From: a virus
Taxonomy: Duplodnaviria > Heunggongvirae > Uroviricota > Caudoviricetes
Virus record (IMG/VR): IMGVR_UViG_3300045988_018328
Reading direction: 5' to 3' (one strand)
Length of the DNA stretch: 22,956 nucleotides
Shown: positions 698 through 18,945 of the stretch, one piece after another
Layout of the letters: each line of letters begins with the position of its first letter
How positions within the stretch are numbered: position 1 is the stretch's first letter
Notes under the pieces: model-generated
Told to the model about the DNA's origin: nothing
What the model saw: the letters and a program-made list of their open reading frames with translations, nothing else
Database searches by the model: none
Made by a program: the position numbers and the translations under genes

Positions 698-765
698 TAT
701 TACCTGAAAAACCACATATGGATAGGAAGGCTGTAAATATGAATAGATATTACCTTTCAGGTAAT
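698..765. promoter_or_regulatory. Shared regulatory module, copy A: ATTACC-N6-ACCACATATG (699-720) plus palindrome TTACC-TTTCA-GGTAA (750-764), in the divergent region between the tailspike gene and the LexA-controlled ORF
   Basis: Same elements in the same order recur at 18868-18945. The 17-mer TATTACCTTTCAGGTAA is identical at 748-764 and 18929-18945. Confidence 0.6.
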
Positions 766-801
766 TTGCAAAACGTGCTGGATAGCAAACAAATTATTTG
801 A

Positions 802-821
802 TACTGTATAAATATACAGTT
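802..821. promoter_or_regulatory. LexA (SOS) box overlapping the promoter of the 841..1098 ORF
   Basis: TACTGTATAAATATACAGTT has CTG-N10-CAG with an AT-rich core, a near-consensus match to the E. coli LexA box TACTGTATATATATACAGTA. It lies between a possible -35 (TTGATA, 798-803) and the RBS GGAGAAG (829-835). Confidence 0.7.
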
Positions 822-840
822 ATTGCATGGAGAAGATAAG

Positions 841-1098
841 ATGCAGCAGTATCACTATCCACTGGAAGACGGATTTACCGAAAGGATTCACACGCCGGGA
901 GGCGTCAGGTCACTGGTGGAAGGATCGCACTTGATGAAATTACTCCGGGATCTCGATAAGGATGGATTTAATGTCGATGGCCCACTTGCCGAACTGACTG
1001 CACTGATTAACTACGTCACCAGCTCACAGATGTCTATGCGGGATCTGCAAACACATCTCGACTATTGTGCCGAACAATTACGAAAACAAACCAGATAA
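841..1098 (+). CDS. Small protein (85 aa) homologous to the C-terminal domain of the downstream antirepressor; putative SOS-induced antirepressor
   Basis: The track ORF 823..1098 starts at TTG; the ATG at 841 has a good RBS. Residues ...ERIHTPGGVRSLVEGSHLMKLLRDLDKDGFNVDGPLAELTALINYVTSSQMSMRDLQTHLDYCAEQL align with Ant residues ...SLIHSPSGVLGLTENSLLMNLLNQLQDDGHDVSGAAAELTTMFCYIVGVSKCLRDIQTHAEYINDKA. Confidence 0.55.
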   Translation: MQQYHYPLEDGFTERIHTPGGVRSLVEGSHLMKLLRDLDKDGFNVDGPLAELTALINYVTSSQMSMRDLQTHLDYCAEQLRKQTR

Positions 1099-1106
1099 GG
1101 TTTGTA

Positions 1107-1144
1107 ATTACCAAGTGGAGTGCTTATATTTACCTTTGCGGTAA
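1107..1144. promoter_or_regulatory. Operator-like site upstream of the ant leader: half-site ATTACC (1107-1112) and palindrome TTACC-TTTGC-GGTAA (1130-1144)
   Basis: Third instance of the TTACC-N5-GGTAA palindrome, sitting 27 nt upstream of the structured element at 1171. Confidence 0.55.
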
Positions 1145-1170
1145 ATTTACACCGCACTCCTCTTGTGCCA

Positions 1171-15948: not shown

Positions 15949-16644
15949 TTATTTGCCATAGAGCACTTCGGCCGCACTACGCTGGCCTTCATTACCACCG
16001 GTGACCATGCCATCTTCAGACATCGCCTTTCCGATTTTCACGAACGTTTTGACCAGATCAGGGTGATTACCCAGCCCGGTGGTGTTCAGATATTCTTTGA
16101 GTTCAGGTGTCCCGAACTGGTCAAGCGCACGCTGTGCGGCGCTAAGGTTAGAAATCAACTTGTCGCCACCGATTTCTTTGTCAGCTTTTACATCCGCAGC
16201 CCACTGCTCGGTTGTTTTCTGCCAGGCTTCTGCCTGGCGCTGCTGAACACCTGCCAGAATCTTCGGATAAGCATCAACCAGCTTTTGCGCTTGCTCGTTG
16301 GTCAGGTTAAGTTCTCGCGCCACCGGCTCGAATTCCTTCAACGCTTCTGTATCCAGCTCTACGCCTTCGGCAGCCTGAAACTCGTACTTCTCAGGCGCAC
16401 CCTCTGGTTTATCGCCGTCCTTTTTTTCATCCTGCTTATCGTTTTCAGGCTTTTTGTCATCAGCAGGTTTATCGCCATCAGCAACAGGTTGTGGCTTATC
16501 ACCTTCCTGTTGTGATGGATCACCAACTGGAGCAGGGTTATCACCTGCAGGCGCTGACGGTTCTGACGCAGCCGGAGCTGCTCCACCATCGACTGGTTGC
16601 TCATTGCAAAGACGGCGATACAGCAAACGCTCAAATAAATTCAT
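15949..16644 (-). CDS. Scaffolding protein (231 aa)
   Basis: Highly acidic, Pro/Asp/Lys-rich low-complexity N-terminal half and helical C-terminus, located between portal and capsid. Track start is GTG at 16650; the ATG at 16644 has AGGAG 6 nt upstream. Confidence 0.75.
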   Translation of the reverse strand: MNLFERLLYRRLCNEQPVDGGAAPAASEPSAPAGDNPAPVGDPSQQEGDKPQPVADGDKPADDKKPENDKQDEKKDGDKPEGAPEKYEFQAAEGVELDTEALKEFEPVARELNLTNEQAQKLVDAYPKILAGVQQRQAEAWQKTTEQWAADVKADKEIGGDKLISNLSAAQRALDQFGTPELKEYLNTTGLGNHPDLVKTFVKIGKAMSEDGMVTGGNEGQRSAAEVLYGK

Positions 16645-16646
16645 GA

Positions 16647-16943
16647 TCACTCCTGTTCACTGGCCTCTTTGGCCATCTTCAAATACTGTTCAGGGCAATG
16701 CGCCATAACGCGCTGAAACAGTTCCAGCGCCAGATTGCGTTGCCCCTCATTAAATGCCATTGCCATAGCGTCCATCGGTGAGATGGCGGAAAACACACGG
16801 CCTTTCTCCAGCACCGACCAGACAACGCGACGCCCCTGTTCACTGCTCATGACAAAGCGAATGTCATCAATTTCACGCTGCGCCATGTCACGTTGCTTAC
16901 GGGCGTTTTCTTCTTTCAGTTGATCGTCTTCGTAATCTGTCAT
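16647..16943 (-). CDS. Small protein between portal and scaffold (98 aa), function unknown
   Basis: ATGA overlap with the portal stop codon; charged helical sequence. Confidence 0.5.
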   Translation of the reverse strand: MTDYEDDQLKEENARKQRDMAQREIDDIRFVMSSEQGRRVVWSVLEKGRVFSAISPMDAMAMAFNEGQRNLALELFQRVMAHCPEQYLKMAKEASEQE

Positions 16944-18619
16944 TGTGATTGCCCACCCTGACCACTAACTGCATTCGCCATAGCTGACAACACACTCGGA
17001 TCCGAAGTTTTAGCTTCGCTTAGCGTCTTGGCCCCCTGTGCCGCCGCCATCCCCATCGCCATCATTTGTTGCTGCTGTTGTTGCTGTGCCCGTTGCTGGC
17101 GAGCCTGCTCAACCTGTTCCTGCGGAACAATGACGGTTGGAGACACTCCGGACATATCAGCGAATGCATCGATCGCCTGATCAACGTTGAGTTTGTCGAG
17201 AGCTTCTGGTTTCGCTTGCGCAAGTTGACCAATGAAGTTAACCGTGGACGCCAGACTGGACAGGCCGATAGACTTCTGCGCCTGAGCCATGACGGAAATG
17301 TATTCGACCTTCAGGGGCATGCCTTCCATCGCGTCAGGCGGTGGCGGCAGCATGTTTTTACGCACCATCATCGAGAAAGCGCGGTCAATGAGAGGATTAA
17401 GACATTCGTCGTTCAGACGCTCCAGAACCGGCCCCAACATCAGAAGCTTTTCTTCTTTCATTTCGATCACCGCTTCAACAGGCATTGAGCGGGTATTGAT
17501 GTTCTGCAACATCATGAACAGATCGACGAAGTAGGCGCTGTTAATGATTTGACGAGTGTCCTGAATGTCTGCCACCAAATCTGCTGTACTGGGGTTAACC
17601 AGATAAGCAGGCCTGAAGCCATCCTGACCAGTAATCTGATCGATATACGTGATGTCGCCAGGAAGAAGGGAGGCACGCTGATTCTTGAGGGAAGTCGGAG
17701 CAACCATCGGCGGATTGGTGGCTTTATCAATCAACTGCGACTTGCGCTTCTGGAGACGCTGCAATGCCTTAACAGGTCCAAGCGCCAGCATACCCGGGCA
17801 TGATGATCCATAAACATCTTCGCCATTAACTTCCCAGCGCGGAGCCATAATTGGAAACTCATCGAATCCGGACTCACGCAACAACTTGTCGTTATCGCCA
17901 CCAACCTCGTAATAAACCGATTTGAATGGCTTGTTCTTGCTATCCAGCTTCGATGTATCGCGGTCAATGTTCGGGTAAACCGAATGCATCACTTCGATCC
18001 ACTTCTCGTAGGTGCCGCTTTCCCACATGCTTTTTACGGATTCGCTGACGTTATTTAGCCCGAACTCCTGAACAAGCTGACGAACAGTCATAGAGAACTT
18101 GCGAAAACAGGTGTCAACACTGCCACGAGGTGAGTTAGCCAGGTAGTAACTGCCTATCGGGAATGGCATTGTGCGAATGATGTCCTCGTCATCCTCCAGC
18201 ACTGCCATTGCACCAGTGCTGTATGTGCCGAGGCTTCCGTATAACTGCGGCAGCGACTGATAGAGATTCGACTTATTGAACATATCGTTCATGCGGTTCT
18301 GCACCGCCTCAAGCCACAACTTAACAGGGCCATAATCCATCATTTCAGGATCTGGCGTAGCCAGGCGAAACCACGGACGCGCGGGGCTTGTGATGCCTGA
18401 CATCATGCCGCTGGCGAGAGTGCGCGCCGCCATAGTCCCGGTCGAATCAATAATACGTGTATTGCGTCGATCGTTACGGTTGACCTCAGAAGTCAGAAAG
18501 CGGGAACCACGCGGGTTGATGTAATCACTCAACTCGCGCCAGTGCGGCTCGAACGACTGACGCTCGCTTTCAAGTTGTGCGAACTGTTTGTTCAATCGCT
18601 CTTTAGTTGTTTCCGCCAT
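16940..18619 (-). CDS. Portal (head-to-tail connector) protein, 559 aa
   Basis: Size and position match T7 gp8-type portals, with an acidic Gln-rich C-terminal tail. First gene of the head cluster after the terminase genes. Confidence 0.85.
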   Translation of the reverse strand: MAETTKERLNKQFAQLESERQSFEPHWRELSDYINPRGSRFLTSEVNRNDRRNTRIIDSTGTMAARTLASGMMSGITSPARPWFRLATPDPEMMDYGPVKLWLEAVQNRMNDMFNKSNLYQSLPQLYGSLGTYSTGAMAVLEDDEDIIRTMPFPIGSYYLANSPRGSVDTCFRKFSMTVRQLVQEFGLNNVSESVKSMWESGTYEKWIEVMHSVYPNIDRDTSKLDSKNKPFKSVYYEVGGDNDKLLRESGFDEFPIMAPRWEVNGEDVYGSSCPGMLALGPVKALQRLQKRKSQLIDKATNPPMVAPTSLKNQRASLLPGDITYIDQITGQDGFRPAYLVNPSTADLVADIQDTRQIINSAYFVDLFMMLQNINTRSMPVEAVIEMKEEKLLMLGPVLERLNDECLNPLIDRAFSMMVRKNMLPPPPDAMEGMPLKVEYISVMAQAQKSIGLSSLASTVNFIGQLAQAKPEALDKLNVDQAIDAFADMSGVSPTVIVPQEQVEQARQQRAQQQQQQQMMAMGMAAAQGAKTLSEAKTSDPSVLSAMANAVSGQGGQSQ

Positions 18620-18633
18620 TTCAATGACTCCGG

Positions 18634-18840
18634 TTACTGACCAAGTAGCGTTTTACCGCTGGTATTAGCGGTTGATGTGTCGCCCTGAGAACCGGTAAGC
18701 AGCGTAGAACTACGACCAGCAGCAGCGCGACGGCGACGTGTTTCTTCGTCGCGGGCATCAACAACGGCGGCATCCTGCTCCTGTGGTGCTGCCTGAACTT
18801 CTGGTGTTGCAGGCACTGATGGTGAGCTACCCATGCACAT
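18634..18840 (-). CDS. Small GC-rich ORF (68 aa) just upstream of portal, function unknown
   Basis: ATG with GGAG 8 nt upstream; low-complexity sequence. An overlapping alternative frame (18621..18860) is less plausible. Confidence 0.35.
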   Translation of the reverse strand: MCMGSSPSVPATPEVQAAPQEQDAAVVDARDEETRRRRAAAGRSSTLLTGSQGDTSTANTSGKTLLGQ

Positions 18841-18867
18841 ATCAATGACTCCGTACGCAATTAAATT

Positions 18868-18945
18868 ATTACCAATTTAACCACATATGATTTATTTATC
18901 GTAGATAGTTGACATTTAACGCACAAATTATTACCTTTCAGGTAA
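18868..18945. promoter_or_regulatory. Shared regulatory module, copy B: ATTACC-N6-ACCACATATG (18868-18889) plus palindrome TTACC-TTTCA-GGTAA (18931-18945), between the portal-side genes and the tRNA
   Basis: Same elements and order as at 698-765. A perfect TTGACA (18909-18914) lies between the two elements. Confidence 0.6.

Follow-up and report, generated by a model that had tools for sequence, protein, structure and literature searches.

The closest described counterpart of the system treated here is the Rep/Ant switch of SPC32H, a Salmonella epsilon15-like podophage (PDB 5D4Z, 5D50). In its repressor, Rep, the N-terminal domain serves for DNA binding, the middle one for dimerisation and the C-terminal one for tetramerisation (PMC9986798). 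Rep attaches to palindromic DNA in tetrameric form, with each DNA-binding pair contributed by different dimers, and is disassembled by the tetrameric antirepressor Ant (PMC9638917); how it represses genes 'has not been extensively characterized' (PMC9986798). Single repressors with many dispersed operators are known from P1, with 22 C1 operators (PMC8546580), and from mycobacteriophage L5 and other Cluster A phages, in which 20-30 repressor sites (stoperators) are spread over the genome, mostly in short intergenic gaps (PMC6550527). The tandem arrangement of operators between divergent repressor and cro-like genes is, in turn, that of lambda CI/Cro. Here, a stretch of 22,956 nucleotides from a tailed phage (IMG/VR record IMGVR_UViG_3300045988_018328, in what follows "the window") is analysed with regard to a palindrome, TTACC-N5-GGTAA, that recurs in its non-coding DNA. 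Judging from the sequences of the window and its relatives, this palindrome is most likely the operator of the immunity module of the prophage, with the lysogeny repressor Rep as its main binder, and by analogy with other switches the Cro-like product of the same module probably shares these operators.

The window belongs to a prophage of the genus Uetakevirus (phiV10/epsilon15-like podophages), and it is 99.8% identical, over the 6 kb searched, to the prophage at the 3' end of guaA in Escherichia coli SCZE5. Its first 6 kb are matched in 1033 of 5426 complete E. coli genomes (about one in five). TTACC-N5-GGTAA, a palindrome with perfect arms of 5 bp and a distance of 10 bp between the arm centres, is the top over-represented palindrome of the 5-N-5 type in the window, with five exact copies against 0.01 expected from dinucleotide-preserving shuffles (at least five copies in 0 of 100 shuffles). 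All five lie in non-coding DNA, which represents about 8.7% of the window as judged in this analysis. The initial annotation had listed four intergenic copies (sites 1 to 4 in Table 1) and a chance expectation of around 0.02. These four are genuine and exact at the coordinates given there, their intergenic position holds and the expectation was of the right order of magnitude, but a fifth exact copy (site 5) and a degenerate sixth next to it had been overlooked. The extended consensus reads A-TTACC-T-n-W-n-A-GGTAA-T, with invariant arms and a spacer that is free except for the central A/T. In E15, the TTACC-N5-GGTAA motif is contained in the sequence TTACCATAAAGGTAAagTTACCATAACGGTAA.

Table 1. 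Candidate operators and other features of the window, with the copies of the second palindrome in related and unrelated phages; +, plus strand; -, minus strand.
Feature	Position	Strand	Sequence or motif	Context and evidence
Lone half-site	700-714		TTACC	50 bp from site 1; overlaps GGTAATAGAAT (-10-like) in the late-type promoter element of the tailspike gene (minus)
Operator site 1	750-764		TTACCTTTCAGGTAA	Exact match; between tailspike (ATG 645, minus) and LexA-controlled antirepressor gene (841, plus)
LexA box	804-819	+	CTGTATAAATATACAG (CTGT-N8-ACAG)	Upstream of the small antirepressor gene; conserved in relatives
Small antirepressor gene, 85 aa	841-1098	+		SPC32H Ant homologue; PDB 5D50 chain E 'Anti-repressor protein', E = 1.4e-46
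Operator site 2	1130-1144		TTACCTTTGCGGTAA	Exact match; 1 nt upstream of the predicted -35 that serves the isrK-C4-ant (Bro-N) unit
isrK small RNA	1181-1256	+		Rfam, 77.9 bits
C4 antisense RNA	1281-1366	+		Rfam, 77.7 bits
Bro-N antirepressor gene	1414-2109	+		Pfam Bro-N, E = 2.3e-21
Operator site 3	2175-2189		TTACCCCAAAGGTAA	Exact match; after ant, before the small membrane-protein cassette (ATG 2216); -10-like TACTAT abutting
Lone half-site	18869-18883		TTACC	62 bp from site 4; overlaps GGTAATAAT (-10-like) in the late-type promoter element of the portal operon (minus)
-35 hexamer	18909-18914	+	TTGACA (perfect)	16 nt before site 4; putative promoter toward tRNA-Arg
Operator site 4	18931-18945		TTACCTTTCAGGTAA	Exact match; between portal operon (68-aa ORF, ATG 18840, minus) and the plus-strand stretch to tRNA-Arg
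tRNA-Arg(UCU)	19268-19344	+
Strong terminators	19388-19423; 19508-19523			After tRNA-Arg
Second palindrome, window	19575-19586; 22026-22037		GTGACATGTCAC
One-mismatch operator	21729-21743		TAACCACCATGGTAA (minus strand reads TTACCATGGTGGTTA)	18 bp from site 5; over terS Shine-Dalgarno sequence and first ATG
Operator site 5	21747-21761		TTACCGTCGTGGTAA	Exact match; between intrinsic terminator and terS; abuts extended -10
terS extended -10	21769-21761	-	TGgTACTAT
Intrinsic terminator	21798-21781	-		Upstream of terS
p55-type regulator gene	22034-22372	-		PHROG 536
Second palindrome, ZX5 (L002)	19535
Second palindrome, TL-2011b (L004)	11500
Second palindrome, E15 (L005)	39847
Second palindrome, Omnitron (L006)	14784
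Second palindrome, AH07 (L007)	22826		GTGACAGGTCAC
Second palindrome, BUCT711 (L008)	431

The same motif is found in all 12 related genomes or prophages that carry a full-length Rep, with 5-11 exact copies each in syntenic places, and it is the top-ranked palindrome in phiV10, ZX5, TL-2011b, Tyrion (Enterobacter), VB_ST_E15 (Salmonella) and BUCT711 (Klebsiella). In the six Uetakevirus genomes, 8-11 exact copies are accompanied by 4-6 copies with one mismatch, mostly syntenic as well, and the sites fall into recurrent classes. Two or three sites per genome lie between the divergent rep and cro-like genes; in the epsilon15/Klebsiella type these are two exact copies in tandem with a spacing of 17 bp, and in the phiV10 type one exact site plus copies with one or two mismatches. 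A perfect TTGACA at a PL-like position is flanked by a pair spaced by 62 bp, another pair with the same distance precedes the p45/resolvase operon, and one site follows the cro terminator. Finally, single sites, or a site and its partner, are located upstream of terS, the portal operon, the tailspike gene, the lysis cassette, the integrase gene and the isrK-C4-ant unit. In phiV10, 12 of the 14 sites occupy the 6.5% of the genome annotated as non-coding, and the other two fall within a TTG-extended terS annotation that is not used by other records.

As regards the individual sites of the window, site 4 is syntenic in all six Uetakevirus genomes, and site 1 has an exact or one-mismatch syntenic counterpart in phiV10, ZX5, Tyrion, E15 and TL-2011b. 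Site 2 is syntenic in phiV10, ZX5, Tyrion and TL-2011b, the flank of site 3 (gcgtactaTTACC) recurs in TL-2011b at 33333 on the reverse strand, and the one-mismatch partner of site 5 is also present in phiV10, ZX5, Tyrion, TL-2011b and E15. The SCZE5 prophage has five further exact sites beyond the window, at the PL-like promoter (two), at rep/cro (one) and at the p45 operon (two), which makes a total of 10 exact sites in about 38 kb. Moreover, six additional Enterobacterales prophages found in the Rep-alignment genome scan, whose Rep proteins are 41-75% identical, all have the motif at rep/cro, the PL-like position and p45, and also at terS where the locus extends there. The initial annotation had named a high frequency of the motif in the host among the observations that would speak against its proposal; no exact site was found in the roughly 218 kb of host chromosome sampled (four 50-kb segments and the prophage flanks).

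The assignment of these sites to Rep is based on the distribution, the homology and the covariation of the protein and the motif. The rep gene of the SCZE5 prophage (L009:15426-16010, minus strand; WP_000836290.1) lies about 5 kb past the right end of the window, on the opposite strand of the record, and its product is identical to phiV10 p40 (194 aa). The phiV10 Rep matches the SPC32H Repressor (PDB 5D50_A) over its full length, with E = 4e-42 and around 42% identity, and it is also identical to ORF21 of ZX5. Overexpression of ORF21 lowered the transcription of lytic genes, in agreement with a repressor role, and no operator was defined in that study (PMC9782041). A full-text literature search for the two arm sequences returned unrelated papers only. 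Rep homologues, as retrieved with a Rep query, are confined to this phage group, and the motif is present together with the Rep/Cro-like module and absent without it: no site occurs in Omnitron, AH07, the four 50-kb host segments, or the loci of five distant proteins that are homologous to the Rep N-terminal domain only and have a different helix. A search was also made for a Uetakevirus that differs in both its repressor and its palindrome; all 36 Uetakevirus-like records from the Rep query turned out to have a Rep homologue, all those examined sharing the same arms. This co-occurrence, the sites at the rep/cro and PL-like regions and the position of rep support the idea, put forward in the initial annotation, of a regulator encoded elsewhere in the prophage that links accessory and late genes.

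Within Rep, the segment N36-L-V-N-R-W41 of the helix-turn-helix (HTH) is invariant in five aligned proteins, which form two clades that are 43-44% identical overall. The G+C content of the N5 spacer covaries with the Rep clade, as it amounts to 38% in the phiV10 type and 13% in the epsilon15/Klebsiella type (operators of L001, L003, L015 and L016 against those of L005, L008, L018 and L019), and the first spacer base is an A in 3 of 54 sites of the former and in 32 of 72 of the latter. This can be seen as a modest protein-site covariation, and the clade-specific spacer may be the basis of immunity specificity in spite of the identical arms. Furthermore, a palindromic site and a paired layout are compatible with a tetramer having two DNA-binding units. 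In the Rep proteins examined, Pfam recognises HTH domains only, and no RecA-dependent self-cleavage domain.

The distances between sites are quantised across the six genomes into 62-63 bp (12 cases), 17-18 bp (seven cases) and 48 bp (four cases). A distance of 62 bp corresponds to about six helical turns, and would thus suit a tetramer with two DNA-binding units that holds adjacent operators or closes a small loop around the promoter. With respect to the promoters themselves, a sigma-70 consensus scan called only the isrK promoter near a site, and the remaining ones are predictions read from conserved hexamers. In a first register, the -10-like hexamer and the operator share one T, the last of the former and the first of the latter, and the operator spans about -7 to +8; this would apply to PL (AATTAT), p45 (TTTAAT), terS (extended -10) and window site 3 (TACTAT). 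At p45, the GGTAA arm doubles as a Shine-Dalgarno sequence, 3 nt before the ATG, and at terS the combination of TGnTACTAT and operator is conserved in phiV10, Tyrion and E15. The TTGACA next to site 4 is kept at 16 nt in phiV10, Tyrion and E15, and appears as TTGACC at 17 nt in BUCT711, so that in this second register the operator would cover the -10/+1 region of a plus-strand promoter toward tRNA-Arg. In the third register, represented by the predicted isrK promoter (TTTACA-17-CATAGT, 1146-1174, with a TG before the -10), the operator ends 1 nt upstream of the -35, its centre being at about -44 when counted from the isrK 5' end (the Rfam match to isrK starts at 1181).

A further arrangement concerns the late operons, in which a full operator lies upstream of a second element at a fixed distance of 50 bp for the tailspike, 62 bp for the portal and 53 bp for the lysis operon. 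This second element consists of CATAT-N2-GGTT followed by GGTAATAGAAT or TGTATAATG, and in the tailspike and portal cases its GGTAA is the lone half-site listed in Table 1. The distance between the CATAT element and the operator is fixed per class (62, 50 or 53 bp) throughout the genus. More specifically, the gaps of 50 bp from the half-site to site 1 and of 62 bp from the half-site to site 4 are both conserved in phiV10, Tyrion and E15, the latter being equal to the spacing of the full-operator pairs, and the two half-sites are possibly weak partner sites. The ATTACC half-sites that the initial annotation had noticed close to three of the sites are indeed present, but they are found 45 bp before site 1 (699-704), 17 bp before site 2 (1107-1112) and 57 bp before site 4 (18868-18873), and not at the 18-30 bp indicated there; those before sites 1 and 4 are part of the separate promoter-like element CATAT-N2-GGTT-N6-GTAAT on the minus strand. 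This late-promoter-like element matches the window twice (699-720 and 18868-18889, minus strand; 0.02 matches expected), with an inverted partner at 683-693, and a palindromic version of it, CCATATATGGTT, precedes the lysis cassette in relatives. It is absent from Omnitron and AH07, two phages that bear p55, the regulator discussed below.

When compared with the described systems, the prophage agrees with SPC32H in that its Rep and its Ant are both homologous to those of that phage, with a LexA box before ant in the window. It differs from SPC32H in belonging to the phiV10-type Rep clade, whose operator spacers are richer in G+C, and in the addition of a second, Bro-N antirepressor behind the isrK and C4 RNAs. 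With P1 it would share the principle of one repressor for many dispersed operators, as well as the control of an antirepressor operon with a C4 RNA, which stands at the start of the operon in P1 immI (c4-icd-ant) and has an operator upstream here. However, the P1 C1 operator is an asymmetric 17-mer, ATTGCTCTAATAAATTT (PMC8546580), instead of a palindrome, the sequences of C1 and Rep are unrelated, and the late operons of P1 are reached indirectly through Lpa, whereas in this prophage full operators stand at the late operons themselves. In Cluster A, the site motif co-diverges with the repressor (PMC6550527), which recalls the clade-specific spacers found here. Unlike the sites of this prophage, which are symmetric, fewer (10-14), associated with promoters and arranged in quantised pairs, stoperators are asymmetric 13-mers that are oriented with transcription, act non-cooperatively and block elongation (PMC6550527). 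The system consequently falls outside the class of dispersed asymmetric sites, given the perfect palindrome and a Rep that is homologous to SPC32H Rep and not to C1 or gp71, and the resemblance to P1 C1 operators and L5 stoperators is functional only. Regarding lambda CI/Cro, the likeness extends beyond the tandem operators of the divergent switch to the pairing of sites, which implies cooperative or looped binding, and SPC32H Rep tetramerises through a C-terminal domain whose structure resembles that in Rco (TetDloop), the looping repressor of pLS20 (PMC9986798). As differences, the Rep proteins examined have no RecA-dependent self-cleavage domain by Pfam and induction would be exerted by an antirepressor, late genes carry sites too, and the proposed loops would be micro-loops of around 62 bp instead of kilobase-sized ones.

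It is common in lambdoid switches that Cro and CI share their operators, and it is conceivable that the sites are bound mainly, or even only, by the Cro-like p41 (76 aa in phiV10) or by another protein of the immunity region, acting as a global regulator of the lytic phase, with the target of Rep being elsewhere. p41 is encoded in every motif-bearing genome and has a match to PHROG 35 'transcriptional repressor' (E = 5.6e-13). Its conservation (57-84%) exceeds that of Rep (41-78%), which would suit the invariance of the arms. Nonetheless, the binding of p41 is compatible with that of Rep, shared operators being the normal case; p41 has no match to a Pfam DNA-binding domain, and the invariant HTH segment and the binding of palindromes by the SPC32H Rep tetramer (PMC9638917), which matches the paired layout, speak for Rep. 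We therefore regard a role of p41 at the expense of Rep as unlikely. The palindrome could also be the late-activator target of p55, whose gene lies in the window, shortly before terS and where the early-right operon ends. That gene qualifies the statement of the initial annotation that no candidate DNA-binding protein for the motif is evident in the window, since p55 is a predicted regulator, the only one in the window (PHROG 536 'transcriptional regulator'), in the classical position of a late regulator, and sites do precede the terS, portal, tailspike and lysis operons. The statement stands insofar as the distribution of the sites speaks against p55 as their binder: the densest clusters are those at the rep/cro and PL-like regions instead of the late genes, and further sites accompany p45, the cro terminator, the integrase gene and the isrK-ant unit. 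A strong argument comes from Citrobacter phage Omnitron, whose p55 is 79% identical (the same as in Tyrion and E15), and the Pantoea myovirus AH07 (62%), in which p55 is the only gene in common with this group and which have neither a Rep/Cro-like gene nor a single site; p55 was thus rejected, and its binding to TTACC-N5-GGTAA is very unlikely. It is a different palindrome, GTGACATGTCAC, that tracks p55 across unrelated phages.

That the palindrome works as an RNA hairpin, for processing, attenuation or as a translational operator, and not as a DNA site, might be deduced from sites 2 and 5, which are embedded in longer inverted repeats that fold better than shuffled sequences (z = -3.1 and -2.9), site 5 and its partner being moreover located in the terS leader. 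But the hairpins of the other three sites are weak (-3.3 to -5.8 kcal/mol; z = -0.4 to -1.8), the arm sequence shows neither variation nor covariation, and the one-mismatch variants (TCACC..GGTAA, TTACC..GGTAT, GTACC..GGTAA) are uncompensated; this reading was rejected on those grounds. In addition, many sites are upstream of promoters or between divergent genes, where read-through transcription is unlikely on either strand, and no Rfam match and no terminator-like stem with a T-run were called at any site, so that an RNA function would be extremely unlikely. The identity of the arms in phages of Escherichia, Salmonella, Klebsiella, Enterobacter, Citrobacter and Erwinia could, on the other hand, suggest a transcription factor of E. 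coli or the Enterobacterales recruited by the phage. Such a factor is hardly to be expected, because the sampled chromosome has no exact site against 10 in the 38-kb prophage, and the motif is equally missing from Omnitron and AH07, which share these hosts; tandem sites within a rep/cro switch are typical of phage-encoded repressors. We know of no E. coli factor with a TTACC-N5-GGTAA consensus.

Several observations weigh against Rep as the main binder. The Cro-like p41, p42 and p39 are found in every Rep-bearing genome, and co-occurrence thus cannot separate Rep from its neighbours. The presumed recognition helix starts differently in the two clades (TQA against K/R-S-A/Q), and the arms remain invariant. 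Furthermore, the full operators of the tailspike, small-Ant and portal units are located about 60-70 bp upstream of the inferred start, which makes simple occlusion unworkable there, and looping to the lone half-site would be a speculative solution. Lastly, it is unusual for a lysogeny repressor to act directly on late operons.

With Rep as the binder, the following mechanism can tentatively be proposed, in which the binding of Rep, the positions of the promoters, the loops and the repression of late operons are all conjectural; what the sequences demonstrate are the statistics of the motif, its synteny and spacings, its occurrence together with Rep and the homologies. In the lysogen, Rep would hold some 10-14 operators at the head of nearly every transcription unit, including that of the Bro-N antirepressor. 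At PL, p45, terS and site 3, the operator would extend from the last base of the -10 over the transcription start, and the promoter directed toward tRNA-Arg would be covered too; at isrK-C4-ant it would abut the -35, and at the late-type promoters of the tailspike, portal and lysis operons it would remain at a fixed 50-62 bp upstream. Paired sites (17-18 or 62 bp) would accommodate the tetramer on adjacent operators, or allow looping over about six helical turns around the promoter. Upon DNA damage, the SOS response would take LexA off its box, the small Ant would then be made and disassemble Rep, and all units would be released together. SPC32H Ant is reportedly under LexA control, and the LexA box directly upstream of the homologous gene places the SOS-sensing arm of the switch inside the window. 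The broad form of this proposal, according to which one tetrameric Rep silences the whole phage directly and free of cascades by clamping pairs of fixed spacing, and the spacer rather than the arms sets phiV10-type and epsilon15-type immunity, is possible, although we hold it with less than even confidence. In this form, every unit would bear a Rep operator, among them terS, the head/portal operon, the tailspike and lysis genes, a tRNA promoter, the integrase gene and isrK-C4-ant, and one tetramer would join two operators side by side (17-18 bp) or through a micro-loop around the promoter (about 62 bp, or 50-62 bp to a half-site at late promoters).

As for the genetic context, the minus strand carries, in this order, nin-like genes, the p55-type regulator, terS, terL, portal, capsid and internal virion protein genes and the start of the tailspike gene, and the plus strand carries tRNA-Arg(UCU), the small antirepressor gene, the isrK and C4 RNAs followed by the Bro-N antirepressor gene, and the cassette of small membrane proteins. 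The series formed by isrK, C4 and Bro-N has a layout like those of P1 immI and Gifsy-1 isrK, and constitutes a second antirepressor unit within the same prophage (1181-2109), for which control by Rep is proposed. The Bro-N homologue of ZX5 acted as an antirepressor when overexpressed (PMC9782041), and the gene is absent from VB_ST_E15, the one Salmonella epsilon15-type genome tested. Site 2, upstream of this unit, sits within a longer inverted repeat, GGAGTGC...GCACTCC (window 1120-1160), which in phiV10 (L001 20470-20540) is a perfect palindrome with 18-bp arms and the operator at its centre; the repeat could serve as terminator of the small ant gene or as an enlarged recognition element.

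Around terS, the mechanically called open reading frame (21133-21807, minus) and the phiV10 annotation begin at a TTG that puts the operators inside the coding sequence. The more likely start is the ATG at 21729, preceded by GGTGG, in agreement with the shorter annotations of ZX5, TL-2011b and Tyrion. The second palindrome overlaps the p55 stop codon in seven of the nine p55-bearing genomes checked, Omnitron and AH07 included; the records of phiV10 and Tyrion end at that stop codon. Further copies are located at operon ends beside terminators, for example after terL, and none was found in 200 kb of host DNA. p55 homologues are present in many unrelated phages, such as N15, phiKO2 and Yersinia and Vibrio phages, and this palindrome may be the binding site of p55 or a mark of the p55 gene module. 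Between the operator-overlapped TTGACA promoter and tRNA-Arg(UCU), finally, the plus strand (18950-19344 with the tRNA) has about 320 nt of GC-rich sequence free of convincing open reading frames, and the two strong terminators follow the tRNA. A search of 18850-19700 against Rfam at a relaxed threshold returned the tRNA only, and the stretch before it may represent a structured leader, or a non-coding RNA missing from the annotation and co-transcribed with the tRNA.

The kind of system represented by Rep and Ant was already known, and it is the genome-wide, quantised layout of operators that is most likely the undescribed part. It offers a concrete operator candidate for a repressor family for which crystal structures are available, and whose mechanism of repression was considered not well characterised as recently as in a 2023 paper, and it outlines what is likely the entire Rep regulon in a prophage type matched in about a fifth of the complete E. 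coli genomes searched. The pairs with a quantised distance of 62 bp represent a natural system for very short repressor-mediated DNA loops. If Rep does act at the late, lysis and tRNA promoters, these phages would rely on direct repression, and not just on the lack of an activator, to keep late genes silent, and this would be relevant to the engineering of phiV10-type reporter phages and to the prediction of cross-immunity among the Uetakeviruses of Escherichia, Salmonella and Klebsiella.

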